From a virus (taxonomy: Duplodnaviria; Caudoviricetes): DNA of 51,775 bases. A program made the position numbers and the translations under genes. Below the pieces are notes generated by a model. It was not told where the DNA came from. It saw nothing but the letters and a program-made list of their open reading frames with translations, and did not search any database. Below are positions 18,516-51,775 of the stretch, piece after piece. The stretch spans positions 1 through 51,775 of the IMG/VR virus record IMGVR_UViG_3300029286_000055; one strand, 5' to 3'. Position 1 is the stretch's first letter; every line of letters starts with the position of its first letter.

Positions 18516-19898
18516 TTACTTAGAAATGTTGTACCCCAATACGACGCTTGCTTCTTCGGCTGTCTGTGGGTTTCCATCCCAAGCGTGTCTCATCTTGGCT
18601 GACATTAACATCGTGTCAGAGCTTGGAAGGCTTGGAGCTGCCCAAACTTTGATGCCTTGGCGAATGAAGTTCATGAAGCGTGATTTCTTAATCAACGCCA
18701 CTGCGGTTAAAACGCCGCCGGAAACATAAACGCCCGAAGCGTTCAAGTCTTCACGCATGAATGGAGATGCCAAAGGCTCGATACCAAATATCGGAGGCAT
18801 TTTGCCTGTTACGTTCGAAGCTAGGCCGCCGAAAGCATAAGCTGTGAACAATTCAGGAATTGCGCCCGCAATAACTTGGGTTTCGATTGTTGTTGACATG
18901 ATCCAAAGAAGATCATTCTTCTCAGTGGCAAACTTGCCCATGAGTTTAAGAATGTTTTCGAACAATGTTTTAGAAGCTGTGTCGCCGTTGTGGTTGTACA
19001 TACGCGTACCCGCTCCCACGAGAGCATCGGCGTCATAAGCCTTACGACGAATGCCTTTGAAAGCTTTGGAGAACGTTGCATTGAGCGCAAGGGCCGCAAT
19101 GTCACTGTCAAAGTGAGATGCGCCGCGTGGTGTTCCTGTGGTGTCACCGTTGATAAGGCAACGCTCATAGGCTCTTGCGATACCTTGCACAACACCCTTA
19201 CGGATTTTGTCGATGATTTTTGGGGCAGAGTCACTCAAGAGGTCTTCAGTGATCTTTGTATGCACGATGTTGTTTCGTGAATACACCGTATAGTTTGCTT
19301 GGGTTGTACTTTGCTCAGTGAAAGTAGCAACGTCGGTTTCTTCTTTTCCTTCTAAGAATCCGGTGTCCCCAGGGATATCCATAGTCGCGGAATCCATTGG
19401 CTGTTGGTCGAATTTATTGGCGAGAAGGTACGGTATCTCGTACTCTTCAAAATAAAACCTTGCTTGGGCCGTTGGCACGAAATTTGCGAAATCTGTGACG
19501 CTATACGCCTTAAGAACTGCCCCTAATTGATTCTTGAAAATCGGTGTTTCCATGACCATAGCGGGGGTAATCGCTTGGCCCTTGTTCATGACTTCGGCTT
19601 GAATGCAAGCATTCGAGAAGTCTTTCTTGAGGTTGAAAAGTCTCATGCGAACTTCGTCGCCCATATACGCGGTATCAGACTTCGAACCGAAGTTGATCGT
19701 CGCATCATGGCCCTTGTAGTTATCAGGCATGTTTTTGCCAATAACTGAATGAAGGCTTTTGCCTGGGATGATATCAAGGTCTTTTTCGAAAACAGGTTTT
19801 CCCACAACTGCTGGGGCTGCCTTATCGGTAAGTATCTTGTTGATTCCATCAAGAATTTTTGTTGTCGAGCTAACGTCTGTGTTGTCATCAGGTGTCAT
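18516..19898 (-). CDS. Major capsid protein (HK97 fold)
   Basis: After the protease; KITEDLLSDS and ERCLINGD motifs; strong RBS; downstream hairpin. Confidence 0.88.
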   Translation of the reverse strand: MTPDDNTDVSSTTKILDGINKILTDKAAPAVVGKPVFEKDLDIIPGKSLHSVIGKNMPDNYKGHDATINFGSKSDTAYMGDEVRMRLFNLKKDFSNACIQAEVMNKGQAITPAMVMETPIFKNQLGAVLKAYSVTDFANFVPTAQARFYFEEYEIPYLLANKFDQQPMDSATMDIPGDTGFLEGKEETDVATFTEQSTTQANYTVYSRNNIVHTKITEDLLSDSAPKIIDKIRKGVVQGIARAYERCLINGDTTGTPRGASHFDSDIAALALNATFSKAFKGIRRKAYDADALVGAGTRMYNHNGDTASKTLFENILKLMGKFATEKNDLLWIMSTTIETQVIAGAIPELFTAYAFGGLASNVTGKMPPIFGIEPLASPFMREDLNASGVYVSGGVLTAVALIKKSRFMNFIRQGIKVWAAPSLPSSDTMLMSAKMRHAWDGNPQTAEEASVVLGYNISK

Positions 19899-19934: not shown

Positions 19935-20987
19935 TTACTTCATATCTTTAACAAGTAAAGCCACGGCGCACGTTAGCTCTTCGACTTGTTTAGATAACTT
20001 CTCATTTACTTTTTTAAGCTCTTCAATCTCTGTCACAAGTTTCTTTTTGTCTTCGTCATCTTTTGGCGGCTTGCATCCCTCTTCATCGGAAGGGACCGTC
20101 GTTTCTTCCTCTTCTTCCTCATCTGTAACTTTTTCTTCTGACTTTGCAACAAGCTTTTCAGTAAGCTCTAAGCTTCTCTTAAGCCCTGCATCGAGGCCCC
20201 TAAGAAGAGTAATCACGTCGCCTTTAAAAGTGTCCTCGGTGTTATCTTCCCTTGGCTTATCTTCTTTACTCACCACTGCATCATCTTTTTTAGTTGATGA
20301 ATCAGTAGTATTGTTTAACGAATTTTTAATTTTCATGGGGTCCTCGTTTGTGTTACTATTAAAGTTATCACCTTCCTTAGAATTTTCCAAGCCTCTTATT
20401 GAAAACACACTATCTTGATTGCAGGGTACAGCAACAACCGATATCTCTAAAAGTTCCCATTGCTCGATTACTGGCCCTTCTTTCACGGACCCATCATCAT
20501 TGAATAAAGGGGCTTTAACCTTCTTAGGAATAAACCCAACAGACACCGTTTTAAGAATACCTTGTTTTACTAAACTTCTAATCTCTTTTTGCTTATCAGT
20601 CAACGGGGCTTTCTTAGGGTCGCCGATCCATCCCGCGAAACTAATACCGCCCTCTTCAATCTCAAGCTCTTCGACCTGTCCAACCGGATTCCTATAGTCA
20701 TGATGCGCCAATATCTGCGGGTTTTTAACAAAGTTTGCAAGCTCAATTCCCCTTGGGTCAAGCCTTTCGTCAACTCTATCCACGATATTCGCGTTCGCGA
20801 TCCCAGCGATGGAAAGAACATCTTTTTCGATATCGAATTGCGGGGCAGTAATTTCCTTAATAGATGCTTCGAAGTAACATTTATCTTTTTCAAGATCGGG
20901 GTTAAGCAGTTTATAGCTCGCCCCTTCCTTTTTCCATTTCTTCGGTGATCCATCAAAAACTTTTCTATCAAGTTTAAATTTGAACAT
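19935..20987 (-). CDS. Prohead protease (HK97/S78 family) with acidic and coiled-coil C-terminus
   Basis: DRVDE, ILAHHD, VSVGF and LLEISVVAVPCN motifs. Confidence 0.92.
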   Translation of the reverse strand: MFKFKLDRKVFDGSPKKWKKEGASYKLLNPDLEKDKCYFEASIKEITAPQFDIEKDVLSIAGIANANIVDRVDERLDPRGIELANFVKNPQILAHHDYRNPVGQVEELEIEEGGISFAGWIGDPKKAPLTDKQKEIRSLVKQGILKTVSVGFIPKKVKAPLFNDDGSVKEGPVIEQWELLEISVVAVPCNQDSVFSIRGLENSKEGDNFNSNTNEDPMKIKNSLNNTTDSSTKKDDAVVSKEDKPREDNTEDTFKGDVITLLRGLDAGLKRSLELTEKLVAKSEEKVTDEEEEEETTVPSDEEGCKPPKDDEDKKKLVTEIEELKKVNEKLSKQVEELTCAVALLVKDMK

Positions 20988-20998
20988 GCTTATTGCTC

Positions 20999-23248
20999 CT
21001 AGTGCCTATTTAAAATTACCTCTGCGTTACTTGTTGCATGAGCTGGAATTACAGAGGTTAGGGAACATCTGCAATTTATTATTTGATCAGCCCCGCCGTT
21101 CGGGTCTCTTGGGTAAGATAAAACACCGCCGTACATATAATTCGATGGCATTGGCCCAAGCTTCTCAAATTGTGCATGTTGCTCTCTTGCATCGGGGTTA
21201 CTCCCAACATCGCCCACATGGAACCACTGCTTTTGCACGTCGCTAAAAACTTCCCCCAAAATGTCATTGTTCCACTTGATCCCTTGGCTAATCGCGCTAA
21301 GTATCTCGGTACGCGCTATTGTGGAAGACTGACCACTATAGTTTTCTTTGTAGTCTTGTCTTATAGCCGCCGCGATCTTATCAAGTGTCCTGCCTCTCTC
21401 AAGGCCACTTGTTACAATATTAAGTATCTCATTCGTTCTCGTTTGGTTGAAGCCAACAAAGTTCTCAATCGCACGTCTTACAAGCGTCGCTCTTCGACCC
21501 TCGGTAGTTTCTTCCTTCAAAACATCTATTGCTTGTTGGTCAACATCCGTGATCGGTTTAGCCTTAAGCACCACAAGCATTTTTTCGGGAATCCCTTTTG
21601 CTTGCGAGTTCGCAAAACTAAATCCTCGATCCATCGCCTTAACAAGCTCTACCCCAACACTCTTTATATATGTTTCAAGCAGAGGCTTTTCGGCTGCTAC
21701 TAGGGAAGTTCTTACATCTCGATTATTTTTCAGGGCATGTTCGGTGATCAGGATAATTTGCTCGATATATTTATCATACCCGATCAAATAATTTTCTGTA
21801 AACTTGGTTTCAATTCTTTCTTGACTTTCAACAGTTTGAGCTTTGAGTGAAAGAACTTCTTTCTTGAATTTTTCCTCTGGGGTCTCAACATTTGACACGC
21901 TTTGATTGTCGTTTTGTTTTGGCGGGGGAAGTGAAAGCATATCACTTATTGTCTGTGTAGGGGTTGCCCTAATCTCTGCAATAAGCTTGCTTCCTCTTTC
22001 ATCTCCGATTGGGGGCATTGCGTAAATCTTTTCTCTTATCTCGTCAATTGTCCACGCGGTTTCAACTGCTTTAGCTTTCTCGCCTTTCTTTATGAGACTT
22101 CCTTGAAGGGCTTCAATCTCTCCAAAATCAGGCTCTACAATTACCTTGCCGCCGTATATCTTTCGCACTAGATAGCTGTTGTTCCATCCCGCAGCAATAA
22201 ACTTGGAGAAAGGGACAATAGTATTTTCCCAGAAAGTTAGATTTTGCTCTTCTGAAGTCGCCCTATTTACATCCTGAACAATCCCCACCTTAGACGGGGG
22301 AATCCCCAGGGCTGCCAACATGGTTAGCCTGTTCTCTTTTAGGCCCTCTAAATGTTGCATTTCGTTCATGGTGAGGCCCGTGTTTACCCACTTTGCCCCC
22401 TTGGGTAAAAAGGCCGTTCGCCACCAATTACGCTTACCGGAATATGCTTGCTCCCATGTTCTCATGAGCCTTTCAAGCCTTGTCTTTCCTAAGTCTTCGG
22501 TTGTCTCAACAACTCCGTAGTTTGTTGCCCCTCGAAGATAGAACCCCATTTCATATTCGTTTTTGAAACGATCCAAAAGAATCGGCCTAGCCGCTGCAAT
22601 ATAAAGAGAGATTCCGAAATATGGGTTGAATGGATTTGGGAATTTAAAATGTACAAATTGCTCATAAGACACTTCACTTCGGCGCATGGTCATAGGATTC
22701 ATAATCGTAACAGTTTTAACCTCAAGCCCATCGGTAGGGGGGTTAATCTGTATTGATTCAATCGGTACGTGCATCGCGTTCTTATATTTTTCATCGAACA
22801 CTAAAAGGTAGTTCCCACCTAAAACAAGATCAAGGTATCCACACCAATTCATAGACATGTTGTCTTGAATAATGTTCGCTGCTTTAAGCTGGGCATTGAG
22901 GGGATGATTTGGTACTAATTCATTTGTGGCTTTGCTCTTAACAACAAAAGGAATACTCGAAAGCGTTCTCGCAATAAGCTGGGCCGTTGTCCACATCCAA
23001 GGCTCTTTTGCAAAAGCTGTTTTGATTCTTGTTGCGCTGGCTTGGATATCAAACTCTACTCCGAAATAATTACCTTGGTCGTTTGTTTTGTCGTAATACC
23101 CGAAGTAATCAACGGCCTTAACGGATTGCTCTATTGCCGCGTTTATCGTAGTTGATAGCCCGTTCATGCGGGATAGACTAGCCAATTCATCATCAAGGGG
23201 GTGCAAAGGTACAGAAACTTGTTTCTTGAATACGTCAAATAGCCCCAT
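20999..23248 (-). CDS. Portal protein fused to a MuF (SPP1 gp7-like) minor head domain
   Basis: Portal motifs (VHFK..NPYFGIS, LGIPPSKVG, TIDEIRE); C-terminal IARTE..KQW..REQH..YPRDP..INCRC. Confidence 0.88.
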   Translation of the reverse strand: MGLFDVFKKQVSVPLHPLDDELASLSRMNGLSTTINAAIEQSVKAVDYFGYYDKTNDQGNYFGVEFDIQASATRIKTAFAKEPWMWTTAQLIARTLSSIPFVVKSKATNELVPNHPLNAQLKAANIIQDNMSMNWCGYLDLVLGGNYLLVFDEKYKNAMHVPIESIQINPPTDGLEVKTVTIMNPMTMRRSEVSYEQFVHFKFPNPFNPYFGISLYIAAARPILLDRFKNEYEMGFYLRGATNYGVVETTEDLGKTRLERLMRTWEQAYSGKRNWWRTAFLPKGAKWVNTGLTMNEMQHLEGLKENRLTMLAALGIPPSKVGIVQDVNRATSEEQNLTFWENTIVPFSKFIAAGWNNSYLVRKIYGGKVIVEPDFGEIEALQGSLIKKGEKAKAVETAWTIDEIREKIYAMPPIGDERGSKLIAEIRATPTQTISDMLSLPPPKQNDNQSVSNVETPEEKFKKEVLSLKAQTVESQERIETKFTENYLIGYDKYIEQIILITEHALKNNRDVRTSLVAAEKPLLETYIKSVGVELVKAMDRGFSFANSQAKGIPEKMLVVLKAKPITDVDQQAIDVLKEETTEGRRATLVRRAIENFVGFNQTRTNEILNIVTSGLERGRTLDKIAAAIRQDYKENYSGQSSTIARTEILSAISQGIKWNNDILGEVFSDVQKQWFHVGDVGSNPDAREQHAQFEKLGPMPSNYMYGGVLSYPRDPNGGADQIINCRCSLTSVIPAHATSNAEVILNRH

Positions 23249-23284: not shown

Positions 23285-24703
23285 TCACGAGGGAAAAGCA
23301 AAGTCATCAATTTCCTTACTGTACTCGTCCGAGTCGTCATCAAAGAACCCATCATCGCCCGCAAAAACCGCCGCAGTTTCTTCAATTAAATCATTCTCTT
23401 CAATGTCGTCGTCTAATTCATCTGCGAGCTTGTCCAAGTCACCCTCTGTGGTATCAACTTTCATATTATGATATGCGTCCGATATTGCCATGATCCCCGC
23501 GCTCACGCAATCATCATTTTCCCCATCGGGGGCCGAATAAGAAAATAGCCCTGACTTTGTTACGTTCACTTCATAGCTTCCAAATTCATGTTGAACCTGT
23601 TCGATATGGGGGGCCTTGTGCCAACCCTTTTCGATTGCCATAATGGTTCGGTTAATCATCTCTTGTTTTGATTTATTAGTGAAAGTAAGTGCCGTAATAC
23701 TTGCATCAATATCCTTGTCCACTAGCATCTCACCTACTGCATCCCCAACACCTGTACTGTCATACCTAAGAAATCTTTCGCCCCTAAAATAATTATGCAA
23801 ATAATACTTAAGCCTATCCACTTGCATCTCGTAGGGTACTTGTCTGAACCTCGCATAACCTACAAGCTCGCCCACTGCATTGACCGTATAGAATACCGAA
23901 TAATCGCGCCGCTTCGCTATGTCCCAGCCTGTGAATGTGTCGAGGGCTCTTGCTTCGGGATCGGGATGAATCCAAAACTTTGTGCGATCGGGGATTGTGT
24001 AGCTCATGGTAAACATCTTGGTAAGATCCCCGAACACAGTTGACACGGAAACAAAGAGGGCTTCGTAATATTGATCGTACAAATATTTTGGGAGTAATCT
24101 TTTTGCCTGGGCTAATGCCTTCTCTTTAACAAAAGGAGAATCTGAAGTCCTAAAATTTGCCCATGTATAGAATGGATCGCCAAGTTTTGCTTTTCTAAAT
24201 TCATCGTAATACCACCCAAAGCCCCTTGGTGTTCCTGTCACAATTCCCTTCCCCATTGTCTGCGTGACGGTGGTAAAAAGAGAATGCCACAACTGCCTCT
24301 TTTGCTTTCCTGCCTCATCGATTATGAATCTATCAACCGCCTCTCCCTCAACAGTTACCTCTGCATCACGTCCATGAAGAAACTTTATAAATGACCCATT
24401 CTTTAACCTTATTTCAAGTTTTCCATCAACACATTCGGCCTCGCCTGGTATGTCTAGCATACATTTCATGTAGCGGTAGCCAATCCTGCATTTCAAATAT
24501 GTGGGCGCAATCCATATACAATAATACCCTGGATTTTCCCACGCATGTCTAGCCAGCCAAAGAGCGCAGCCATAACTTTTACCAAATTTTACACCGGATG
24601 GGGCAATCAAAACTTGGGCCTCTGGGGCAATGTAATGATCCCAATGGACAAACATAGCTTGGTGTTCGTGGGGATCAGGTAATTTTAAAATTGTTCGGGG
24701 CAA
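23285..24703 (-). CDS. terL: Terminase large subunit
   Basis: Walker A-like GVKFGKS, Walker B FIIDEAG, GTPRG; nuclease GWDIA..D, DSTGVG, NDD. Confidence 0.92.
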   Translation of the reverse strand: MPRTILKLPDPHEHQAMFVHWDHYIAPEAQVLIAPSGVKFGKSYGCALWLARHAWENPGYYCIWIAPTYLKCRIGYRYMKCMLDIPGEAECVDGKLEIRLKNGSFIKFLHGRDAEVTVEGEAVDRFIIDEAGKQKRQLWHSLFTTVTQTMGKGIVTGTPRGFGWYYDEFRKAKLGDPFYTWANFRTSDSPFVKEKALAQAKRLLPKYLYDQYYEALFVSVSTVFGDLTKMFTMSYTIPDRTKFWIHPDPEARALDTFTGWDIAKRRDYSVFYTVNAVGELVGYARFRQVPYEMQVDRLKYYLHNYFRGERFLRYDSTGVGDAVGEMLVDKDIDASITALTFTNKSKQEMINRTIMAIEKGWHKAPHIEQVQHEFGSYEVNVTKSGLFSYSAPDGENDDCVSAGIMAISDAYHNMKVDTTEGDLDKLADELDDDIEENDLIEETAAVFAGDDGFFDDDSDEYSKEIDDFAFPS

Positions 24704-30426: not shown

Positions 30427-30748
30427 TCTTACCGACAAAGAAGTAAACTTACTTAAAGTTACTTTATCAACTGCGCTTGAAAGGTTTTACAATAGTAAAA
30501 CTGCTAGCGAGCCAGCGGGGATAATAGAGGGTATTGTGAGTAGGCTTACAGGAAAGCCCTCTAAGAAGACTTCGAAAGTAGAGGCTAAGTCTAGCAATGA
30601 TGTTCTAAAATTTTTGGAAGTAGAAAACACCCGCCTTCGCACTCTTTTGAACACCCTGCCCGATAGTGCCCACGTTGTTAAACAAGTTGTGGGTGGGTCA
30701 TTTGATGCCTACAGTAGGGTTAAAAAATTTATCAATGGGGAATTATGA
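30398..30748 (+). CDS. Hypothetical protein
   Basis: 116-aa ORF, AAGGA RBS. Confidence 0.6.
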   Translation: MPEQKLTLIDLTDKEVNLLKVTLSTALERFYNSKTASEPAGIIEGIVSRLTGKPSKKTSKVEAKSSNDVLKFLEVENTRLRTLLNTLPDSAHVVKQVVGGSFDAYSRVKKFINGEL

Positions 30749-30960
30749 AAATCCTTTTTCTAATTTTTATTTTGTTCTCGATCGACTCCCCCGCTGGGGT
30801 TTTGCCCGCGAAGTTTCCAGTGGGGATTGATCTTAAATGCTCATCAGTAGAGTATATAAAGCCACGTGGGAGAGTTTTGCGGTGTATAGATGATAAATCA
30901 GTTTGCTACGTTGACACTCTTATGAATGAATTTTTATGCCATCCAAAGGGGGATTTATGA
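30745..30960 (+). CDS. Small exported Cys-rich protein
   Basis: Signal-like MKILFLIFILFSIDSPA|G; four Cys in the mature part. Confidence 0.6.
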   Translation: MKILFLIFILFSIDSPAGVLPAKFPVGIDLKCSSVEYIKPRGRVLRCIDDKSVCYVDTLMNEFLCHPKGDL

Positions 30961-32637: not shown

Positions 32638-32656
32638 CCACTAAATAATAAAATTA

Positions 32657-42331: not shown

Positions 42332-42685
42332 TTATTGATTGTTGTGACCTACCATATAGCCTAACATACTTCCGACCATAAGAGAAAAAATCACGCCCCC
42401 AATGATAATCGAGGGCTCTTGATAAAAGGAAGTTTCCTCTTTCTTTTCAAAGTTTTCCTCTGCGAACTCTTTATAAAGCTCTAATTCAACTTGGCAATCT
42501 TCCCCATCCCTTATCTCTTCGCTCATCACTGATAGCTCTTCATCCGAGAAGCAATGAAGATCATCAAGGATAACGTCGTATCTTTTTCCTGAAAAGTAAT
42601 CTTCGAGGGGTTTAGGGCTTTGGGCCTCTAAGTTTTTTGGTAAGAAGGCGGCCAATAACAGTAAGGTGAGAATCCTTTTTTTCAT
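42332..42685 (-). CDS. Exported protein with C-terminal TM helix (candidate spanin-like lysis accessory)
   Basis: Signal-like N-terminus, acidic middle, C-terminal IIIGGVIFSLMVGSMLGYMV. Confidence 0.55.
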   Translation of the reverse strand: MKKRILTLLLLAAFLPKNLEAQSPKPLEDYFSGKRYDVILDDLHCFSDEELSVMSEEIRDGEDCQVELELYKEFAEENFEKKEETSFYQEPSIIIGGVIFSLMVGSMLGYMVGHNNQ

Positions 42686-42908
42686 TTAGAGCCCTTTCTA
42701 AAGTCTTATTTTGTATTTTCGAAAGCTCTAATTTGCCTTTTAGTGCGTTGTTTTTGTTTCTTAGATAGTTTCCCCACGCCACTAGAAAGGCTGGCAGTAG
42801 CATCTCTAAGACGCTTAGAAACTTAATAGCGGCCTGAAGTACCGTAAGGCTACCTTTGGCCGCTTCTTTGATTGGTTCGTCGCTCATTAAACCCCTGGTT
42901 TCATCCAC
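42612..42908 (-). CDS. Membrane protein with short coiled coil (candidate i-spanin-like)
   Basis: Hydrophobic segment then basic coiled coil; in the lysis cassette; start probably MSDEP (42887). Confidence 0.45.
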   Translation of the reverse strand: MDETRGLMSDEPIKEAAKGSLTVLQAAIKFLSVLEMLLPAFLVAWGNYLRNKNNALKGKLELSKIQNKTLERALNEKKDSHLTVIGRLLTKKLRGPKP

Positions 42909-43264
42909 GTTGGAACCGAGAAGCCAAAATATCCGAAAGCTTTAGCCACGGTTGCAAGAATGGCGTACATGACTTTGGCAAAGCCCCCCATGTTTTCCTT
43001 TTTGAATATCTTAGCAAGCCAGTATAGCACGTCGCTTAGTCCTCGAAGAATGAAGCTAATACCAATAAAAAGGCCAACAATGGCCCCAACCAAGGTTTTG
43101 TAATCCGTAGGAATGGGCAGGGCCCCGATTGCCCCAGAGATATCGCTGGGAAGCGTGGGGGCTACTTCCTGCGATAAAACGATATCCGAGCAAATAACGG
43201 TAAGACCCGCGACAACCATAAGCACGAACATGATCGACCAATTTTCTCTAAAAAACTTTGTCAT
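42887..43264 (-). CDS. Putative holin
   Basis: Three hydrophobic segments; adjacent to the endolysin. Confidence 0.6.
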   Translation of the reverse strand: MTKFFRENWSIMFVLMVVAGLTVICSDIVLSQEVAPTLPSDISGAIGALPIPTDYKTLVGAIVGLFIGISFILRGLSDVLYWLAKIFKKENMGGFAKVMYAILATVAKAFGYFGFSVPTWMKPGV

Positions 43265-43279
43265 AAATCCATCCTTTCG

Positions 43280-43816
43280 TTAATGAGGTACTGTACTAAG
43301 TATTCTACGGTAATCGAATGTTATGGGCAAATTCTTTGGAATCTCGTATCCACAAAATAACCCATAGTAATCACTAGCTTTTGTCCCTAAAGCGTCCTCG
43401 CCATCAACCCCCCGCTGGAATTTCGCGAAGCCCCCAGGCCCTAAAAGGTGCATGACTGCGATCGCCCCACTCACCTTTTCAGTGTCGAGAAGTGGGTAAT
43501 GGGCCTCTACAATTTTCATGAGCCTTCCCACATGGCAATCAAAAAGAACATCTTGAAGAGTTGGGTGGGTGAGAAAAACGCTTTCCGTTATTCCTGGGAA
43601 CCAATAAAACTTGGGCCCATCTTTTCTCATGAGGCCAAAATCACAAAGCCTTGCTTTACCAAACTGCCACATTCCAAGATATCCGAACTTATTAACGCAT
43701 GTGTAACAGCTTCCGCTTTCTCTTTTTCCGAGGTCCTTTTTAAAATCATCGTATGATTTCATTTGTCTGGGGCTCCCGTAAGCCTTGCTTTCCTTCCATG
43801 ATTCGGAAGGCTGCAT
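43280..43816 (-). CDS. Endolysin, lysozyme-like fold (start possibly 43762)
   Basis: LGKRES..VNKFGYLGMWQFG with candidate catalytic Glu; HLLGPGG. Confidence 0.75.
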   Translation of the reverse strand: MQPSESWKESKAYGSPRQMKSYDDFKKDLGKRESGSCYTCVNKFGYLGMWQFGKARLCDFGLMRKDGPKFYWFPGITESVFLTHPTLQDVLFDCHVGRLMKIVEAHYPLLDTEKVSGAIAVMHLLGPGGFAKFQRGVDGEDALGTKASDYYGLFCGYEIPKNLPITFDYRRILSTVPH

Positions 43817-44063
43817 CGGCCTTAGAGTTTGCTTTGGTGATATCTTCTCTTAATAATTTATCTCGTTCGTCGATTCTTTTTAACTCTAGTGAGAAAGATT
43901 TCTGTAAGACAGCAATATCAATGATACATTTATTTAGCTTGGCTGCCTTAAAGCGAAGTCCTTTGAAAGCATGGGAAAGGATTACCCCCGCAATTGTTCC
44001 GATTATGGCAAATAAACCATTGATTATTGAGGGGGGAAGGGTTGCGAAGTCGAACATAAACAC
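43746..44063 (-). CDS. Single-TM coiled-coil protein (holin/antiholin-like)
   Basis: N-terminal TM IINGLFAIIGTIAGVIL; upstream of the endolysin. Confidence 0.55.
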   Translation of the reverse strand: MFMFDFATLPPSIINGLFAIIGTIAGVILSHAFKGLRFKAAKLNKCIIDIAVLQKSFSLELKRIDERDKLLREDITKANSKADAAFRIMEGKQGLREPQTNEIIR

Positions 44064-44105
44064 CTCATTTTTGGATCCAAATGTCTACTAAATTAGGGTG
44101 TATAT

Positions 44106-44145
44106 TTTAGGGTAAGCCTATAGTGTAGCCCTCACTTACCCTAAA
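44106..44145. terminator. Inverted repeat between the lipoprotein and the lysis cassette
   Basis: TTTAGGGTAAG..CTTACCCTAAA 11-bp stem. Confidence 0.5.
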
Positions 44146-44151
44146 TAAAGG

Positions 44152-45036
44152 TTACTCTCCGTAGTCTTCCAAAAGTCTGTCAATAACGAAAAGACGTTCT
44201 GCCACTTCCCAGGCTTCCCCTCTTTCATCTGCGGGCTGATAATCCGAAGCTGGGGCCTGATGAGTCAAAAGAAGTTCGATAGTATTGGTTTGATCCCCCG
44301 TGTACTTTCCAAGTACGTATTGATAAAGAATGGTATCAGGAACCCTAGCAACATGTTCCTTTAGCCTTTCAAGCATTTCATCTCGGATAGCAAGGGAAAA
44401 TTTTCCTTCTTCCACAATTCCCCTCAAAAGAATCTGCATAACTTGAAGGTGGGCTTCATAATCATCGAGACCACTTGGGTAAGCATCCGGCCAATAACGA
44501 TGCCCTGTATCTTGGCCCCCAAGATAGTAAACAATGTTTGCCAGTAACCCCACGACGTTCGGGGTGTAAACCGTTCGAAGCTCGTCATAAGGGGAACCTG
44601 TAACCCAATTATGTTCAAGGGCGTAATCAAAATGACTCTTGCAAGTGTCTAAGTCTTTTTTGAAAACGCAGTAGGGGAACATCCCAGCAACCGCCATGTC
44701 TCTTGACCATTCCGTTTTTGACCCTTGGGCCCCCGTTTCCAGGGTCCAACACCAAGGGGGTGGGTGTCGTCCAAATTTTCCCTTCTCAGGATACTCAGCC
44801 GCGTGAATGTCGAACTTTTCGAATCCTCGAACCGCCCCTACTTTCGCGCTTGGTATCATCCCATCGCAATCATTTGGGGCTATCCATCCATAGGGGTTGT
44901 CTGAAAGCTCCAAAGCCTTCCCTAGCAATGAAGCCTTCTCAGCCCTAAGAGCTGCCATTTTATCGGTAGGCTCTGGGGCCTTTTCCTCATTTTTTCCACA
45001 AGATATCAACAGGGCTAAAAGCAAAAGATACTTCAT
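44152..45036 (-). CDS. Lipoprotein of unknown function (mainly helical)
   Basis: MKYLLLLALLIS|CGK lipobox; GGGGG RBS before the ATG at 45036. Confidence 0.75.
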   Translation of the reverse strand: MKYLLLLALLISCGKNEEKAPEPTDKMAALRAEKASLLGKALELSDNPYGWIAPNDCDGMIPSAKVGAVRGFEKFDIHAAEYPEKGKFGRHPPPWCWTLETGAQGSKTEWSRDMAVAGMFPYCVFKKDLDTCKSHFDYALEHNWVTGSPYDELRTVYTPNVVGLLANIVYYLGGQDTGHRYWPDAYPSGLDDYEAHLQVMQILLRGIVEEGKFSLAIRDEMLERLKEHVARVPDTILYQYVLGKYTGDQTNTIELLLTHQAPASDYQPADERGEAWEVAERLFVIDRLLEDYGE

Positions 45037-45105
45037 AAATACCCCCACATAAAAGCATGGGGGTAAGTGAAACCCCCCACGACAAAAAGGAAAATTATTG
45101 AACAA

Positions 45106-45690
45106 CTAATATTGTATCAAAGAAGTGAATTTTTTACTTGCTTTTATGAAATCATCCCCAATTATCGTGGGCTCTCCAAGGCGTTCTCGAAGCTGCCAGG
45201 GGCAGTTTTTCATAGTATTTATATAGGCGTAAGAAACAAGTTCGAAGCAATAGAACTCATTATTCGAAGACGAAAACGAAAAATCATACTTTTTACCTAG
45301 CTGACCTACGGCCCAATCAGCCGCGTTTCTTCTATCTTGTTCAAAACAAAAAATTGGTCTAAGCAAAATAAGCTCGTCTTTTGTCATAACAAAATCATAA
45401 ATATCCGTTCTTCTTACCCCATCTAAAGCGGCCTCGATGACCCCCAAATCTTTGCTTATAAATAAGGCCCCGTGGGTCCATTTTCCTGGGATGAAAAGAT
45501 TAGATAGCTCGCCTCTTGTTCTGGTTAAAAAGATATCCCCAGGTTGTGCCCAGGTTAAAAGACTTCTAGCATGATTAGCATGTAAAAGTTTTCTTGAGTA
45601 TGGGGAATGAATTTTTGATATCAAAAGAGAAAGGGGCCTTGATACTTTTAAAAGAAGCCCTCTAAGTTTCTGTTGTAGCTGTAAGCTCAT
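45106..45690 (-). CDS. Permuted papain-like amidase (YiiX/YebB-like NlpC/P60)
   Basis: QPGDIFL, WTHGAL (His), VIEA, GKKYD, FYCFELV (Cys after His). Confidence 0.85.
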   Translation of the reverse strand: MSLQLQQKLRGLLLKVSRPLSLLISKIHSPYSRKLLHANHARSLLTWAQPGDIFLTRTRGELSNLFIPGKWTHGALFISKDLGVIEAALDGVRRTDIYDFVMTKDELILLRPIFCFEQDRRNAADWAVGQLGKKYDFSFSSSNNEFYCFELVSYAYINTMKNCPWQLRERLGEPTIIGDDFIKASKKFTSLIQY

Positions 45691-45814
45691 CTATTAATTT
45701 TTTAACCCCTACTTCCGTTGTGACTTCTAGTTTTGTTTTGAACCCGCTTGGGTATCTTAACCACCAATGATCTTTTTTATCTTGCCAGTATCTAAAACCT
45801 TTATACTCAGTCAT
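45662..45814 (-). CDS. Small hypothetical protein, 50 aa (MTEYKGFRYWQDKKDHWWLRYP...), not in ORF track
   Basis: GAGG RBS; fills the gap between neighbouring genes. Confidence 0.55.
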   Translation of the reverse strand: MTEYKGFRYWQDKKDHWWLRYPSGFKTKLEVTTEVGVKKLIDELTATTET

Positions 45815-45823
45815 GAGAACCCT

Positions 45824-46633
45824 CTAAGCTTTATAATGTTCGAAAAGAATCATCAAGGCTATTTTAGCCCCAACAGTATGGACAATTGCAAGCCTTACTT
45901 TATTTGTATTGTAAACGGGATCGTAGTTCATTCGTTTAGAGCACCGCCCGTCAATCTTAACGCAACACCTTTCGGCTGCGAAAGAAAGATCAATCCCCCC
46001 TTGAATGAATGGAACCGAACCACCATACGCCTCTGGGATATCGGGAGCAATGATACACCAAGCATAAGCCTTTTCACCAACACCTAAAACGCTTTTGACG
46101 TTGAACATCGCAGAGATTAACTCTGCGTCATAATGAGGCTGCCAATCAATAATTGTTTTTGAACAATTTGCTGTAAGTCTTACCTGAAAATCTTCGGGAG
46201 TTTCTTGCTCACCTTTTATAAGCTCTTCATTACTTTCGTTATAGAATCTTTGTACTGCGTCCCCAATATCTGTAAGAGTTGATATCTCGGCCCCGCTACA
46301 TTTTTTATTGAAAAGACTTTTATATGTGCTTGTCGAAAAACTAACTGCTCTTGGTTCGAAGTGCCAGCCAAGCGTATTATACTTTGGTCTGTAAAGTATT
46401 GACCCCTCGTAGTCTGTCGGTGATATTTTTTTGTTGCAGTCATCTTTGAAATTCTCCTCAAAGTCTTCCTGCTCGCTTGACCTTGGATCTTCTTTTTTCA
46501 TTCTCGAAATCACATGAAAAGAACTATCAAATGCAGCAAGCTCGTATCCTTCATCTGTTTCAAAAAAATGAAGAGGCACTTGCCTTGTCGAAATAAAACT
46601 TTTAATCTCTGCCCATGAAATGTTGTAAATCAT
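45824..46633 (-). CDS. Hypothetical protein (late region)
   Basis: 269-aa ORF in the operon. Confidence 0.65.
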   Translation of the reverse strand: MIYNISWAEIKSFISTRQVPLHFFETDEGYELAAFDSSFHVISRMKKEDPRSSEQEDFEENFKDDCNKKISPTDYEGSILYRPKYNTLGWHFEPRAVSFSTSTYKSLFNKKCSGAEISTLTDIGDAVQRFYNESNEELIKGEQETPEDFQVRLTANCSKTIIDWQPHYDAELISAMFNVKSVLGVGEKAYAWCIIAPDIPEAYGGSVPFIQGGIDLSFAAERCCVKIDGRCSKRMNYDPVYNTNKVRLAIVHTVGAKIALMILFEHYKA

Positions 46634-46635
46634 TT

Positions 46636-48273
46636 TTACCTCAAAACAAAATCAAGTGTTGCGTACCAATCTGATGAAGTTGAACCCTTTGGAGTAACAG
46701 CAATCTTAACAACATCACCCGCGAAACCAATTCTGATTGGGTTTGCTCCAAAATTTTCACACTCTCTTGAAGTGGATGAAACACCCCAATCCGCTGTTTT
46801 AAACATCCTAAAAATATTGTCGTCCAAAACCCCAGGGCTTGCAGGCGGGGTTGTTATCGTGTTCTTTCCCACTTTAACAGTCCCACCAATGTTCGATGTG
46901 CTTACTGAGTACCCAACTAGGAAAAGAGTTTTGTTTGCTGGTACTGTGTAGCTGCAAATTATTTGATCCGCGCCCGTTGTTGTGGCCGTTATTTTTCCAG
47001 TTAAATAGTGAACATCCTCTTGAACGATTTGATAAACAGGGGAAGCGGTGAAAGTGTTTTGAACTTCGACCTGATTTATATTAACCGTAGATATGTAGTC
47101 GCAAGTAATGTTTGTGCTGCTAGCCGCTGTCCCTGTGTTTTCGTTTCCTAAGAATAAAGTAAGTGCTGTGTAAGGCCCTGGCAAATGCCTTTTATGAATT
47201 GCTACCTGTACGCCGTTAACGTAGAAAGCCACTTGGTCAAGCTGTACGTCAATCCAATAATCTATGTATGAAGCTGTTGTCAGAGCGTTTGGAAGCGTGA
47301 TCGTAGTTTCTTCAAGATCGGTAGAATCAGCACTTGACCTAGTTCTACACTTAGCCTGTGTCGCTGTCGTTCCATCAAATTGAAAATGGGCGCATTGCGC
47401 GTGAAGATCGGGATCGGCAGAGTCAGCGTATCCATAGGTGATACTTTGGTTTGCAATTCTCTGTGAGATTTTTAGTCTTGAAAGAGCCCTCATTGGACCA
47501 TAGTCTATAAGTCGTTCAATTCTTACTTCGCTTCCGTTTGTCGTACCTGTCGCCAAAACTATTTCAGAACTCGCGACAGCTATAGAGGCCCCCGTCCCCG
47601 CCGTTGGCTTGAAGCTCGAAACACTTGCTGTACCAGAGCCATTGGCACCTTGATACGGTTCTGCGAGAATTACTCTTGTGGCTGAAATAACAGAGTACAC
47701 TTTCGCGTAAACTGAATCTGCGTGTGATGAAAGCTTTATGTATCCATCGGCGTTAACGCCATCGGCCATAAAGTCTGTCCCGCTTCCTTCAACTATGTAA
47801 GAACCATTTATAAAAGTGGCTGTACCAGTTGGCGCAAACGATAAAGAAGACCCACTAAAATCGTTTCTAAAAGAGCCCTCGTCTGTTAGAACAGCCGAAC
47901 GACTCATCAGGTTGCCATCTGAGTCGATCCTATTGTGGTCAAACTCTCCTGCTTCACTTTCTGTCATGATAACATCAGGACAAGGGTAAAAATTGTTAGC
48001 GTTCTGTGATAAAACAATCCCGTCAAACATTGCTGATTCACTTGCAATGGCCTCGTTCATAAGCCAGTCAAGTTGTTCATTGATAGTTCCAAAGTATATA
48101 TCGCCATTTCCTATAAGCGCATCGCCCGAACCAATGGCAGTTAATAGCGGGTCGCATCCTGCGTACATCTCGCGCTCGGCTGTTGTCTGAAGCTGATACT
48201 CTTCATTGTCTGTAAACTCTTTTATCCAAGTCTGAGAAGTACCAGAAACGTTTTTGACATATATTATTCTCAT
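46636..48273 (-). CDS. Putative virion fibre/spike protein with lectin-like beta-sandwich
   Basis: TGTATFINGS..VEGSGTDF fibre-type motif; YWIDV..VAFYVNGVQVA; C-terminal YTVPANKTLFL. Confidence 0.6.
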   Translation of the reverse strand: MRIIYVKNVSGTSQTWIKEFTDNEEYQLQTTAEREMYAGCDPLLTAIGSGDALIGNGDIYFGTINEQLDWLMNEAIASESAMFDGIVLSQNANNFYPCPDVIMTESEAGEFDHNRIDSDGNLMSRSAVLTDEGSFRNDFSGSSLSFAPTGTATFINGSYIVEGSGTDFMADGVNADGYIKLSSHADSVYAKVYSVISATRVILAEPYQGANGSGTASVSSFKPTAGTGASIAVASSEIVLATGTTNGSEVRIERLIDYGPMRALSRLKISQRIANQSITYGYADSADPDLHAQCAHFQFDGTTATQAKCRTRSSADSTDLEETTITLPNALTTASYIDYWIDVQLDQVAFYVNGVQVAIHKRHLPGPYTALTLFLGNENTGTAASSTNITCDYISTVNINQVEVQNTFTASPVYQIVQEDVHYLTGKITATTTGADQIICSYTVPANKTLFLVGYSVSTSNIGGTVKVGKNTITTPPASPGVLDDNIFRMFKTADWGVSSTSRECENFGANPIRIGFAGDVVKIAVTPKGSTSSDWYATLDFVLR

Positions 48274-48809
48274 TCAGGAACCCTCGATATCCAAAGTATT
48301 AGGTCCATATCACTAGCGTTCGTTCCGTCGTCTTGATATTGGGCATAAATCACTGAGCCTGGGTCAAACGTATAGGTAAGCCCCGAAACATATCCGTAAC
48401 CTGGGTTTGTTGAAGTGACTGTGAGCGTATAAAAAATAGTGCCTGTTTTGCTCACGCTTCTAAACTCAATATGAAACTGAGTGTTAACAGTGGCATTCGC
48501 CCAAGTGATTTCATTTATTTTTGTCTTAACTGGAAACACGGCAAGAGGGGTGTTTGGTAAAAGCTCGTTTGGCCCAAGCCACGAACCCCCCGAAACTGTC
48601 CCGTTATATGAGCCCCTGATCCCAGCGCGGGGGAAGCCCTCGGCGTTTTGTTTTGCCTCTATTATGGCAGAACAAACATCTGTAGCTGTGAAATTTGTAT
48701 CACTGAAGGGAATTGCCCCACATGCGGGCGAGAAATATGCTGGCCCAAAAGTAGAGCCAGCCGATAAGGAAGACCAACAAAGCAGAAGGCTAAAAAGTAA
48801 TTTTCTCAT
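48270..48809 (-). CDS. Signal-peptide-bearing fibre/decoration-like protein
   Basis: MRKLLFSLLLCWSSLSA|G; IPF..FTATDVCSAIIE neck-like motif; beta-rich C-terminus. Confidence 0.65.
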   Translation of the reverse strand: MRKLLFSLLLCWSSLSAGSTFGPAYFSPACGAIPFSDTNFTATDVCSAIIEAKQNAEGFPRAGIRGSYNGTVSGGSWLGPNELLPNTPLAVFPVKTKINEITWANATVNTQFHIEFRSVSKTGTIFYTLTVTSTNPGYGYVSGLTYTFDPGSVIYAQYQDDGTNASDMDLILWISRVPE

Positions 48810-49186
48810 TATCCTGCCTCTAACACAATAACATCATTCCCAGCCCCCGCAGCAATAGCATAGAGGGCCATATCCCCAATCGGTACAGTAGCCATTTGAC
48901 TTTTTAGTATTGGTATCCCCATCGTTGCACCCGAAGTAGTTACAGAAGCCCCGCCAATATAGACGGTTGCGTTACTATTATTGTAAATTATTACAAATTT
49001 TCGGTATGGATCGCGGGAAGCCCCGCCCTTTAGTTCTACCGCCGATGTACCGACGGTAACAACTGAATGCTGCAGCACTTTCTCGCTTACAGGGATTCTA
49101 TCGGCGTTTATTAAGCCGCCGAGAGCAAGCGAGGACAAGCACAAAAAATAGACACTTACAAGTAATCTAAGCATTTTCTTTTTCAT
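48809..49186 (-). CDS. Signal-peptide-bearing small beta-sandwich protein
   Basis: MKKKMLRLLVSVYFLCLSSLALG|G; RKFVIIYN..VYIG..GATMGIPI..LYAIA. Confidence 0.7.
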   Translation of the reverse strand: MKKKMLRLLVSVYFLCLSSLALGGLINADRIPVSEKVLQHSVVTVGTSAVELKGGASRDPYRKFVIIYNNSNATVYIGGASVTTSGATMGIPILKSQMATVPIGDMALYAIAAGAGNDVIVLEAG

Positions 49187-49508
49187 CCAAAAGTTTTAGG
49201 GCGTACTCTCTTCTTTCCTTTTCCCATTTTCCAATCTCTTCTAGTTTTGTAGCCATTCTTTTTTCGAACTCTGGAAGCCAAAACATAACCTGGCTAGCTG
49301 CCATGATCTCAGTGGCCCCATCAAGTTTGATTTCAACTCTGGTAAGAATTTTCTGAACCTCTTGCACCATTGCAAAGTCTTTTCTTGAAAATGCTAGTTC
49401 AAGTTTTGGGGTGATCTTTTTCACCTGGGGCTCGGATATTTCGAGAATTTTGGCGGAAGTATCTACTTTTACAGGTATATTTTCCGTACGCTTTTTTGCT
49501 TTTTTCAT
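49167..49508 (-). CDS. Hypothetical protein
   Basis: GGAG RBS, 113 aa, charged. Confidence 0.6.
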   Translation of the reverse strand: MKKAKKRTENIPVKVDTSAKILEISEPQVKKITPKLELAFSRKDFAMVQEVQKILTRVEIKLDGATEIMAASQVMFWLPEFEKRMATKLEEIGKWEKERREYALKLLDEKENA

Positions 49509-49521
49509 GGCGTAATCTCCT

Positions 49522-49553
49522 AAAAAGAATGGGGGCAGTTATACCCCCATTCT
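49522..49553 (-). terminator. Intrinsic terminator after 49575..50438
   Basis: AGAATGGGGG..CCCCCATTCT followed by a U tract on the minus strand. Confidence 0.8.
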
Positions 49554-49574
49554 AACCTTTCTAGGAGATCATGG

Positions 49575-50438
49575 CTATCCTATTTGGAAGAGCATTGCGC
49601 TCGGCGTTCCACTTTCCGCTATCGCATATACTGGCACATATTGGCCCCAAGGAATTGGGCCAAGTTCGCCTTGGGCTGGGATCTTGATACCTTGGGTTGC
49701 TCCCGTGTTTGTAACAGAAGAGTTACCAATGTAAATCGCTTTGGTTCCTAAGTTTTGGATTATGATTTCTTTACGGCCCGCTTGCACTGTTGCGTCGAGC
49801 TGGGTTGCCGTTGTTGCATTTGTTGCAACAACGTCTTGTCGGCAAGCTACGTTTGGAGAATCGTTAACGAGTACCCTTCGGTACAGATCGCTAACCATAT
49901 CAGCTCTATCGTTAGCGGCTGAAATTGCTGATAAGGCAGCCCCAAGAGCCCTCGAACCTACCTTTATCGGATTACCCGAATCCGCTGCGTCATCTGCGAC
50001 GTTTCCAGCCACTTCCAAGGCAATCTCTGTGGAAGCTATGTTGATATCAAGAGCCCCTGCGGTCGCTGTTACGCGGTCCCAATTTGTCCCGTCAAAGCCC
50101 ATAAGGAATGAGTTAACATCGAGAGCTTGGATTGTTGCGGGGGCAACGTTATCAGAGCCTGGGGCCCCGCCTGATATTCTAAGGGTTTGGTGCGTTACGC
50201 CGATTGAAGCGTTACGAACGTGAAAGATTGCGCCAACAGTATCTGGGGTTAGATTGTCTGGGTCGTCATAAATACCGTCCATATCCACTGCAATGTCGTT
50301 TGCCACGTTCACGTCAAGGGAAAGTTTTCCCCCAACATCGGTACTTGTGAGGGCATGGGCAGAGGTACGAAGATACGCTGCTACTGAGTCGCCATCATCG
50401 GGGGTCGCGGAATAGTATACAAGTTTTGGTTTACTCAT
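49575..50438 (-). CDS. Putative abundant virion decoration/spike protein
   Basis: AGGAG RBS, own terminator; C-terminal RKEIIIQN..IYIG..GATQGIKI..VYAIA paralogous to 48809..49186. Confidence 0.65.
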   Translation of the reverse strand: MSKPKLVYYSATPDDGDSVAAYLRTSAHALTSTDVGGKLSLDVNVANDIAVDMDGIYDDPDNLTPDTVGAIFHVRNASIGVTHQTLRISGGAPGSDNVAPATIQALDVNSFLMGFDGTNWDRVTATAGALDINIASTEIALEVAGNVADDAADSGNPIKVGSRALGAALSAISAANDRADMVSDLYRRVLVNDSPNVACRQDVVATNATTATQLDATVQAGRKEIIIQNLGTKAIYIGNSSVTNTGATQGIKIPAQGELGPIPWGQYVPVYAIAESGTPSAMLFQIG

Positions 50439-50533
50439 TGGTTTTAACTCCTAATTTATGTGAATGAGGGACTATCCCCCAGAGGTCAGCCAAAGAGTTT
50501 TTCGGATTGTCTTAGAAAGACTTTAGAACTTTT

Positions 50534-50896
50534 TTAGGTCCAATAAGTTAGTTGAAGAATATCAGAGGCTTTGGAAGAGGAAAAATAGATTTTATGAGTC
50601 ACGCTTGGGTCAAGCGCGTTCTCGTCATGAAGTGAGCCAGGGGGTAAGAGCCTGTATTTTGTAGCGATCGATAAATCAATCCCAAGTTTCACAATTCCAT
50701 CATTCTTAGAGTATATAGAGAAGCGTTTAACCCCAGCGGGGAGGTCGAAATATTGCTCGGTATTAGCTATTGGTACGGGGATATCTTCAATAGAATGATT
50801 TTGCACAAGCATGTCACCAAAGGTCGCGTTAACGTCCAAGGGTGCCCCTGGGATTGATTGCACAAAACTTGGCGGTAAGTCTGTTACTCTACCCAT
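50534..50896 (-). CDS. Hypothetical small beta-rich protein
   Basis: 120 aa; weak resemblance to the decoration family. Confidence 0.55.
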   Translation of the reverse strand: MGRVTDLPPSFVQSIPGAPLDVNATFGDMLVQNHSIEDIPVPIANTEQYFDLPAGVKRFSIYSKNDGIVKLGIDLSIATKYRLLPPGSLHDENALDPSVTHKIYFSSSKASDILQLTYWT

Positions 50897-51272
50897 TCTT
50901 TTTTCCTAACGCTACAATAGAAATGGTCCCAGCCGTGTTGGTCCCGTGAGAGAATTTTACCCTTGAGTACCGATATCCAATTACTCCGAGGTTGAACATT
51001 TTCGTTTTCTTTTTTCCCCTCGTCCCATCATCGCTCATGACGTACTCGTTATTTATTTCACAAATTTGGATTTCATCAAACCAATCATCTATTGGCACGT
51101 CGGATGCTTCAACAATTATTTTTCCATCGAGTGCGTTGTTCGCGTCCCATTTTGCATGAATAGAACCGATTGGCATTTCCTTCCAGTCGATAATATCTGA
51201 AATGAAATCAGTCGCCATAGATACCTCTTTGGCGACGTAAGAACGATTGCAGTTTCGAGCGTCAATGATCAT
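50889..51272 (-). CDS. Hypothetical small beta-rich protein
   Basis: 127 aa; GKIIVEASD and YRYSRVKF..GTISI strands. Confidence 0.55.
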   Translation of the reverse strand: MIIDARNCNRSYVAKEVSMATDFISDIIDWKEMPIGSIHAKWDANNALDGKIIVEASDVPIDDWFDEIQICEINNEYVMSDDGTRGKKKTKMFNLGVIGYRYSRVKFSHGTNTAGTISIVALGKKNG

Positions 51273-51275
51273 TAA

Positions 51276-51775
51276 TTACCTTATATGGCAGTAGTTAATT
51301 CCGTACCATCCCGCACCTCCAGAGGCTCCAAAATTTCCCTCAGAAACATTTGCATACACAGTAATGTTTCCATTGGTAGCTACTGTATAGGTCATATCAT
51401 TGGTATATCCACCTGAGTTCCCTCTTGTCTGACCCCTAAACTCTGTGGAAGGTCTGAACCTATCTGGAATAGCCGAGGATATCGCAAACACTGTTGCAAC
51501 TGTAGAGGTACATATTGATTGTTTAATGTACATGCAACTGTGATACCCGATTCTTGTTAAGAAAACATCGACAGAAGACAAAGTACATGGGCCTGTAAAA
51601 TTAACAGTGTGTGTATATGTTTCATTTCTTTCGTTCCATGACCAATGTGTGTTAGTTGTTGGTGCGTCCTGTAGGGCCACAAATTTTATAAAACCAAGAT
51701 TTATTATATCTATAGTTGTATCATCTGAACTTCTGATAGTTACTTCGTAAGAGGATCTATTTCTTACTTCCCAAG
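51276..51775 (-). CDS. Partial (5'-truncated) tail fibre-like protein
   Basis: Frame open to the window end (WEVRNRSSYEVTIRSS..), similar to a module of 36..2939; head motif IPDRFRP. Confidence 0.7.
   Translation of the reverse strand, partial: WEVRNRSSYEVTIRSSDDTTIDIINLGFIKFVALQDAPTTNTHWSWNERNETYTHTVNFTGPCTLSSVDVFLTRIGYHSCMYIKQSICTSTVATVFAISSAIPDRFRPSTEFRGQTRGNSGGYTNDMTYTVATNGNITVYANVSEGNFGASGGAGWYGINYCHIR

Follow-up and report, generated by a model that had tools for sequence, protein, structure and literature searches.

Leaderless and leader-bearing copies of a small jelly-roll knob family in a tailed-phage genome

The virus record IMGVR_UViG_3300029286_000055 (Duplodnaviria; Caudoviricetes), examined over its whole length of 51,775 bases and called the window here, raises the question of why proteins resembling virion surface parts should carry export signals, which is odd for such proteins. 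The genes concerned (Table 1) encode Y, a long protein without a signal peptide, Z, a short protein with one, X, the upstream partner of Y, and a pair near 16 kb, T1 and T2. A preliminary description had regarded them as an expanded family of one small beta-sandwich domain, routed to different compartments. According to the reading favoured here, which has about an even chance of being right as a whole, Y is a trimeric spike or fibre accessory and Z a free knob, with exported copies in the sub-lineage of the window and in the 16 kb branch.

The relationship between Y and Z is the firmest part of this picture. They share 30 identities over 76 positions by BLASTP (E 6e-10), and profile-profile comparison with hhalign, using alignments of 58 sequences for Y (A1) and 14 for Z (A2), gives 99.0% and E 6.8e-18 over 101 columns, or 99.4% and E 2.1e-21 when the C-terminal part of Y is compared with leader-trimmed Z. 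A combined Y/Z profile recovers both by hmmsearch, with E 4e-39 for Y and 6e-25 for Z. The two are paralogues, as had been proposed from their similar C-terminal ends. Z also matches a PHROG family of unknown function, phrog_30212 (E 1.9e-5).

Regarding its architecture, Y begins with a stalk (about residues 1-190, at low confidence) and ends in a jelly-roll knob (about residues 195-287); the acidic linker between them is strongly conserved and contains a DRAD..YRR motif. AlphaFold2 run on A1 builds the knob as an eight-stranded sandwich with a predicted local distance difference test (pLDDT) of 91-98, and the monomer model of residues 1-190 is poor. Jelly rolls were returned by both Foldseek and VIA-align when searched with this model, which agrees with the small jelly roll first suggested as the shared domain. 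The Foldseek matches comprise Ena3A (E 7e-4), Ena2A, Ena1B, the KHP40 cement protein, a Pam1 capsid chain, a PR772 chain (22% identity) and cupins. Spike, turret and cement proteins of viruses are among the closest solved folds. The scores are middling, and such matches fix the fold and not the function. At the sequence level, the Y profile found a single chance-level match among all PDB sequences (E 0.85).

When three copies of Y were co-folded with A1, the runs scored 0.80, 0.73 and 0.73, and none of the three controls scored above 0.00; the partner pLDDT was 79 or more, and the runs had 81% or more of their contacts in common. The calibration of this test had 20 of 30 solved pairs and 1 of 23 single chains at or above the mark. 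The modelled contacts run along residues 6-200, which fits an intertwined stalk, and also join knob to knob. Such intertwining would explain the poor monomer model of the N-terminal part. Y is therefore predicted to be a homotrimer, and the prediction supports a trimeric spike or fibre. The gene is also followed by a terminator-like element, in line with the terminator claimed before: a hairpin with a U run lies directly 3' of the stop codon, with a fold energy of -35.6 kcal/mol (z -6.42; 0 of 200 shuffles equally stable), and it was missed by a pattern-based terminator scan.

Considering the leader of Z, its N-terminus has a basic start, about 15 hydrophobic residues and then small residues before the conserved arm. 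These are the features of a Sec-type (signal peptidase I) signal peptide, defined here by a basic n-region, an h-region of 10-15 hydrophobic residues and small residues at -3/-1; a stricter form of the rule flags 4 of the 65 window genes. An in-frame stop lies three codons before the start, and ATG1 as well as ATG5 overlaps the stop codon of the preceding gene. Leaders of the same kind, differing in sequence, are present in the Z orthologues of P0122, L001 and L002, where L001-L042 denote 42 related loci from a viral-contig scan. The possibility raised earlier that the start of Z had been mis-called is thus answered, and the leader is real at the level of sequence; the export of Z would follow from it.

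Initiation of Z at an internal codon, which would give a leaderless form, is extremely improbable. It could make use of TTG codons 15 and 17 in the window gene or, in L001, of an internal ATG at codon 22, which is the exact start point of the leaderless orthologues. Against this, L002 offers no start codon between codons 8 and 30, both T2 and the gene after Z have none after codon 1, the ATG1 and ATG5 of Z overlap the upstream stop as described, and the leaders diverge in sequence yet retain the n-h-c build. A related candidate, in which each gene yields two isoforms, one long and exported, one short and cytoplasmic, would be possible in the window and in L001; it was set aside, as L002, T2 and the gene after Z lack a usable internal start.

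The leader is a derived and rare state, a recent and narrow innovation within the Y/Z group. Among 14 Z orthologues it occurs in four (window, P0122, L001 and L002). In the eight leaderless orthologues that could be read from their loci, the start is preceded by an in-frame stop at a distance of a few to 43 codons, and the starts of the remaining two, P0123 and P0124, were not checkable. More broadly, a leader was found in 3 of 30 small knob proteins of viral loci and in 5 of the 150 best family representatives, with lengths of 123-125, 194, 404 and 464 aa. The proposal of exported and cytoplasmic versions is therefore upheld in part: both kinds coexist in this phage, and the contrast between compartments is real as far as the encoded sequences go, but it is not general in Y/Z. 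The suggested family tree with signal peptides mapped on it, built from 68 knob sequences over 102 columns, places leader forms in two positions (window with P0122; L001, L002 and P0165). Its forks have supports of 80-93 in the Shimodaira-Hasegawa-like approximate likelihood ratio test (SH-aLRT), below the mark of 95, so the number of leader gains is not fixed, and the tree-based count of changes compared only the two labelled groups.

The gene following Z likewise encodes an N-terminus that resembles a signal peptide. A leader is present in the window copy and in the homologues of L001 (7611-8144) and L002 (7515-8051), and is absent from those of L006 and L014; thus, this leader is found only where Z has one, and the two changes go together.

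The knob belongs to a large group of proteins. Among 1.84 billion representatives, the Z profile found 3908 at E<=1e-3 and 618 at E<=1e-10, the family clusters being defined at 50% identity, and the knob is C-terminal among the matches listed. The best 150 representatives are mostly small, with 76 of up to 110 aa, 44 of 111-145 aa and 30 longer. Predicted viral structures (BFVD) gave 111 models at E<=1e-3 for Y; the best 50 of these are all uncharacterised or unnamed, derive mostly from tailed phages and in many cases have 85-100 aa, with template modelling (TM) scores of 0.7-0.85. A word-indexed search returned 133 homologues of Y, and none of the 120 best has a Pfam domain or an informative name. 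Pfam scans of 13 window proteins found nothing for X, Y, T1 or T2 and, for Z, only a sub-threshold LTD match (E 0.075). Among the 30 longer members, a single one, P0307, gave a Pfam match above the cut-off: its knob is joined to the N-terminal domain of the Bordetella phage tropism protein Mtd (PF18454; 60 bits, cut-off 26.3) and seems to occupy the place of the distal domain of a fibre. The family is new in the sense of being unnamed, unstudied and without a Pfam family, the fold and the general kind of protein being already known.

The 16 kb pair extends the comparison. T1 and the C-terminal domain of T2 are copies of one domain (56% identity over 84 aa), and the AlphaFold2 model of T1 (mean pLDDT 87) has a leader helix and an eight-stranded sandwich with a strand spacing like that of the Y knob. 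The leader is fixed in this branch, as the N-termini are hydrophobic in all 33 aligned members and 31 of them pass the strict leader rule. Four cysteines are invariant in T1 (C63, C93, C96 and C99), three of them forming a CxxCxxC motif, which fits disulfide formation after export. T1 has 37 homologues, and where long contigs are known, all lie on contigs sized like this phage group; tandem T1/T2 pairs occur in three of five related virus records, and a fourth has a lone weak T2-like match. As for T2, residues 36-146 resemble the N-terminal part of putative tail proteins of 298-299 aa with an immunoglobulin (Ig) domain in L025 and L028, the L025 gene standing directly before likely chaperone and tape-measure genes. 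T2 also gave a weak match to a tail-sheath PHROG (E 0.0017) and no similarity to its 531-aa neighbour.

The membership of this pair in the family, proposed earlier from a looser sequence pattern, holds for the predicted fold and strand order, and the sequence match is marginal. Compared by hhalign, T and Z give 93.8% with their leaders, and 40% with E 2.9e-4 without them; T against the C-terminal domain of Y, also without leaders, gives 3.8%. These values speak for the alternative that the 16 kb pair and X share with Y/Z a mere small beta-sandwich shape, without homology, and that the exported forms are rare Z variants; so does the failure of X to match either Z or T. This alternative is doubtful, though it deserves real weight. 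When the Y/Z profile was run against 1717 open reading frames (ORFs), the T proteins were the best outsiders (E 2.3e-4 to 0.1; 0.027 for the window T1 and 2.3e-4 for the L045 homologue), matching over the whole domain and in one register, and the strand spacing in the Y and T1 models is nearly identical. In addition, 32 of the 50 best solved entries are common to the Y and T1 lists, with the PM2 spike P1 (2vve/2w0c) ranking first for T1 and second for Y. Three rounds of iteration of the Y/Z profile over the same ORFs gained neither T nor X at 1e-5. T1 and T2 are probably distant relatives of Y and Z.

X was likewise named as a possible distant member, and its case is weaker. Its family is distinct, with a conserved beta-rich C-terminal domain of about 85 aa, which matches the C-terminal domain of Y marginally (hhalign 41%, E 2.8e-4; 16.8% for the whole alignments); comparisons with the Z and T profiles gave no signal (about 0%). 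One X member, L034:5104-5421, reaches E 0.003-0.007 with the Y/Z profile. In the Atlas, the neighbours of X are viral hypothetical clusters, and its model has beta-sandwich neighbours. Of the named clusters, the nearest is one in which 32% of the members have PRD1_P5_spike_N (0.90), to which T1 scores 0.80, followed by XepA (0.77); for X and T1, these Atlas matches are leads only. A fusion in L031 (4673-5299) has a stretch 40% identical to the N-terminal part of Y followed by an X domain, which indicates that the X domain and the knob can occupy equivalent places and points to domain shuffling between X and Y.

The gene order is well preserved. In the window and in each of the 38 loci where Y is clear, the ORF immediately before Y is of the X type, and the loci without X (L039-L042) have only weak partial Y matches. 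Of the 38 loci, 22 have one or more further small knob proteins, encoded after Y, as Z is, or before X; the expansion of the family is thus borne out, with at least one additional free copy near Y in these loci. A small ORF between Y and Z is also present in L013, L016, L018, L019 and L027.

When the flanks were scanned with PHROG, the first large gene upstream proved to match a major head protein family in 19 of 36 loci (6 of 9 and 13 of 27), near-copies being among those counted (L015/L017, L022/L023, L029/L032/L033 and L035/L036). Homing or HNH endonuclease genes lie between the capsid gene and the cassette in L014 (3378-5027), L018 (4039-4647) and L028 (3735-4337). Portal or terminase genes precede the cassette in six more loci, an endolysin gene does so in L006, and in L022 and L023 a 903-aa protein that matches tail fibres and virion proteins is encoded upstream of it. 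In the window, L001, L002, L003 and L009, it follows a tail-fibre-like gene, and the capsid gene is not adjacent. In L025, the full set of connector-sized genes stands after Y and before a putative tail tube gene; hence, X and Y are extra to the connector set. The position after the capsid gene is the classic site of capsid decoration and head-fibre genes, and it is mainly for this reason that the family may be read as part of the virion surface. The decoration or spike role first put forward is thus plausible from cassette position, the spike, turret and cement folds and the predicted trimer, and a place in the virion would be its consequence.

Similar associations of leaders with particle proteins are available for comparison. 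In Cellulophaga phage phi10:1 (KC821618), which is tailed and of about 54 kb like this phage, gp091-gp094 are annotated as 'structural protein, based on experimental MS/MS proteomics analysis', MS/MS being tandem mass spectrometry. Together with the pectate lyase gp095, they have basic and hydrophobic N-termini ending in small residues and then Q, as in Z, T1 and T2. Unlike Z and T, gp091-gp094 are large distal-tail proteins of 317-777 aa and not small knob copies. All window proteins compared with phi10:1 gave only portal/minor-capsid and connector matches. A second case is a 412-aa protein in L009 (2117-3355) with a leader-like N-terminus, a clear tail-fibre homologue (phrog_4492, E 2.7e-42; 92 phage records matched) with 33% identity to the tail fibre of Puniceispirillum phage HMO-2011. 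The phi10:1 proteins and the L009 tail fibre together indicate that leader-bearing virion surface modules recur, and that a leader is compatible with a place in the particle. A literature search on signal peptides in tailed-phage virion proteins, those of phi10:1 included, found no discussion in the search results, which were judged without full text.

The same observations bear on another possibility, that the leader copies (Z, the gene after it, T1 and T2) are not virion parts but exported adhesin derivatives that act in the envelope by masking the receptor or ligand of the phage itself, which would block superinfection and keep progeny off debris. The lipoprotein Llp of T5 acts on FhuA in this receptor-blocking way. 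The canonical leaders, the leaders of Z and of the following gene occurring in the same relatives, the L009 tail-fibre homologue with its leader-like N-terminus and the resemblance of the knob to a PM2 P1 spike fragment that includes the receptor-binding domain would all suit such a function. It is nonetheless unlikely, since four or more such genes per genome are many for exclusion, the genes lie within late structural operons of an apparently lytic phage, and the leader proteins of phi10:1 were found in particles.

Among described systems, the nearest parallel in layout is XepA with YomS. According to PMC6834076, XepA has 279 aa and two jelly-roll domains with a linker, YomS is a short protein 38-39% identical to the XepA C-terminal domain, both are pentamers, and XepA is reported to be exported and absent from mature particles. 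The likeness to Y/Z lies in a jelly-roll protein of about 280 aa accompanied by one of about 110-120 aa resembling its C-terminal domain, and, as with the window cassette, both are encoded near tail-fibre and lysis genes. The proteins studied here could accordingly be late-made jelly-roll oligomers sent past the cytoplasmic membrane, absent from particles and aiding lysis; besides the common layout (YomS being given there as 38% identical to the C-terminal domain) and the export reported for XepA, this would agree with the Peptidase_C92 and lysozyme-like genes near the window cassette, a peptidase also accompanying the cassette in the distant relatives L018 (8979-9476) and L008 (6500-7066). 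Such a role is very improbable: none of X, Y and Z matches the Pfam family XepA (PF27453) at E<=0.1, the sole lead to XepA is a weak feature score for X in the Atlas, XepA and YomS are pentamers whereas Y in three-copy folding passes as a trimer, and in most relatives the cassette stands in the head module, away from lysis genes.

Other known proteins share the fold with different partial likenesses. The PM2 spike P1, with its stem and receptor-binding fragment (2vve, 2w0c), ranks at or close to the head of the fold lists of both Y and T1; unlike this phage, PM2 is tailless and membrane-containing, and the P1 identity is 12-17%, with scores slightly above background. Cement, decoration and turret jelly rolls, such as BPP-1 Bbp16, a jelly-roll cement protein (PMC3863775), those of KHP40 (7dou) and Pam1 (7eel_H), and the HFTV1 turret (8qpg_TD; PMC12494034), in which a small base protein is paired with a trimeric head that binds glycans, are small and sit on HK97-type capsids. 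Their trait of following the capsid gene is seen here in the 19 relatives counted above and not in the window or the four loci with the tail-fibre arrangement. Ena subunits (7a02, 8pdz, 9i0y, 9t3p) are the top Foldseek matches for the Y and T1 models (E 7e-4 to 5e-3); like the knob copies, they have about 110-125 aa with a jelly roll and an N-terminal arm, and Ena fibres are disulfide-linked according to the entry title, T1 and T2 having invariant cysteines. Unlike Y and Z, with which they have no sequence relation, they are endospore-appendage proteins of Gram-positive Bacillus. The defining feature of Ena (DUF3992) is a cysteine-bearing N-terminal connector that cross-links subunits. No such connector is found here, as cysteines are absent from mature Z, the only one in Y is outside the arm and those of T1 lie in the sandwich.

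Returning to the favoured reading, Y would be a homotrimeric spike- or fibre-like virion accessory made of an intertwined stalk, an acidic linker and a C-terminal knob, and Z a free-standing copy of that knob with a short arm before it. The knob family, normally without a signal peptide and kept immediately downstream of the major capsid gene in a cassette of fixed order (X, Y, small gene, Z), would provide an exposed module of the virion surface (head fibre, decoration or spike tip) binding a host-surface ligand. In the sub-lineage of the window, the cassette would have been relocated behind tail-fibre genes, and Z and the gene after it would have acquired cleavable Sec-type leaders, with T1 and T2 representing a third, more distant, cysteine-rich branch, always with a leader. 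The exported copies would be delivered to the periplasm, where disulfides can form, and would then either join released particles at lysis or occupy the envelope ligand. The leader proteins may thus join particles after export, act in the envelope, or do both.

Several points weigh against this account. The trimer run on Y, with three copies and its own alignment, falls outside the conditions of the calibration, and three was the sole copy number used. The leader and export calls derive from an in-house rule and not from a trained predictor. The link of T to Y/Z consists of the fold and the marginal hhalign and hmmsearch scores already given. The X, Y/Z and T profiles have no detectable similarity to phi10:1 proteins, so that phage serves as an analogy only. 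Finally, the window cassette adjoins lysis-type genes and not the capsid gene.

It is quite improbable that some of the outer host-recognition parts of the virion in this phage group, and perhaps widely in phages of Bacteroidota-like hosts, are made as Sec-exported proteins, folded and disulfide-bonded in the periplasm and attached only at or after lysis to a particle built in the cytoplasm. If true, virion assembly would be split between two compartments, and Z and the T pair, as the exported members, would form a matched test pair with knob proteins that assemble in the cytoplasm. This phage offers an internal comparison between a leaderless form predicted to be trimeric, a newly leader-bearing free form and an old cysteine-rich branch that is apparently always exported. 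The question it raises is whether surface parts of tailed phages are matured outside the cytoplasm, or whether virion modules are repeatedly recruited as exported envelope factors. Moreover, the knob family is one of the larger phage protein families without a name or function, and because of its size and clear gene-order signature, one structure or proteome would annotate thousands of genes.

Table 1. Features of the window discussed in the text (aa, amino acids)
Feature	Coordinates	Strand	Description	Basis or matches
X	50534..50896	-	120 aa; upstream partner of Y	
Y	49575..50438	-	287 aa; long form without signal peptide	
Hairpin and U run	49513..49571	-	terminator-like; directly 3' of the Y stop	fold energy
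Small gene between Y and Z	49167..49508	-	113 aa	BLASTP matches in L002, L003, L009
Z	48809..49186	-	free-standing knob copy with short preceding arm and signal peptide	
Gene after Z	48270..48809	-	179 aa; signal-peptide-like N-terminus	
Gene upstream of X	50889..51272	-	127 aa; conserved in close relatives	BLASTP matches in L001, L002, L003, L006, L009
T1	16048..16425	-	125 aa; signal peptide and jelly roll	
T2	15300..16022	-	240 aa; signal peptide, middle domain, C-terminal copy of the T1 domain	
Large terminase	23285..24703	-		PHROG
Portal	20999..23248	-		PHROG
Protease-like gene	19935..20987	-		PHROG
Capsid-like gene	18516..19898	-		PHROG
Connector genes	within late structural operon	-		PHROG
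Tail terminator	16438..16899	-		PHROG
Tape measure	7467..12668	-	1733 aa	PHROG
Distal tail genes	reaching down to 36..2939	-		PHROG
Peptidase_C92	45106..45690	-	permuted papain-like amidase	Pfam E 2.2e-18
Lysozyme-like gene	43280..43816			PHROG

As regards the phage itself, PHROG scans of the window proteins place a late structural operon on the minus strand, and the replication genes occupy 29-42 kb of the plus strand. In related contigs, homologues of the gene at 36..2939 sit 3-4 kb upstream of the genes of the Y/Z region; this placement indicates that the two ends of the record join and that 51773..42332 is the continuation of the late operon. No close phage was found among 50,697 phage records, the portal being at most 27% identical to any match, and a tblastn search of Y against the same records gave no match at 1e-3. 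Scans of species-representative bacterial genomes with the Y and T profiles returned no prophage relatives.

Some further features were noted. At least six genes of this phage are signal-peptide-like, as two small ORFs, 30745..30960 (+) and 42332..42685 (-), have N-termini of this kind in addition to Z, the gene after it, T1 and T2. The gene at 44152..45105 (-) is called from a TTG start in the window, and its homologues L001:11243-12214 and L002:10025-10915 start with lipoprotein-like signals, in which a hydrophobic run ends in Cys. A 70-nt unit occurs four times at 6788-7352, 61-71% identical to the reference copy, within the distal tail gene 5938..7467, which suggests an internal protein repeat. 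A 35-nt element in two copies that are 94% identical (29012-29046 and 32650-32684) stands in each case before plus-strand early or replication genes, and may represent promoter or regulatory sites.

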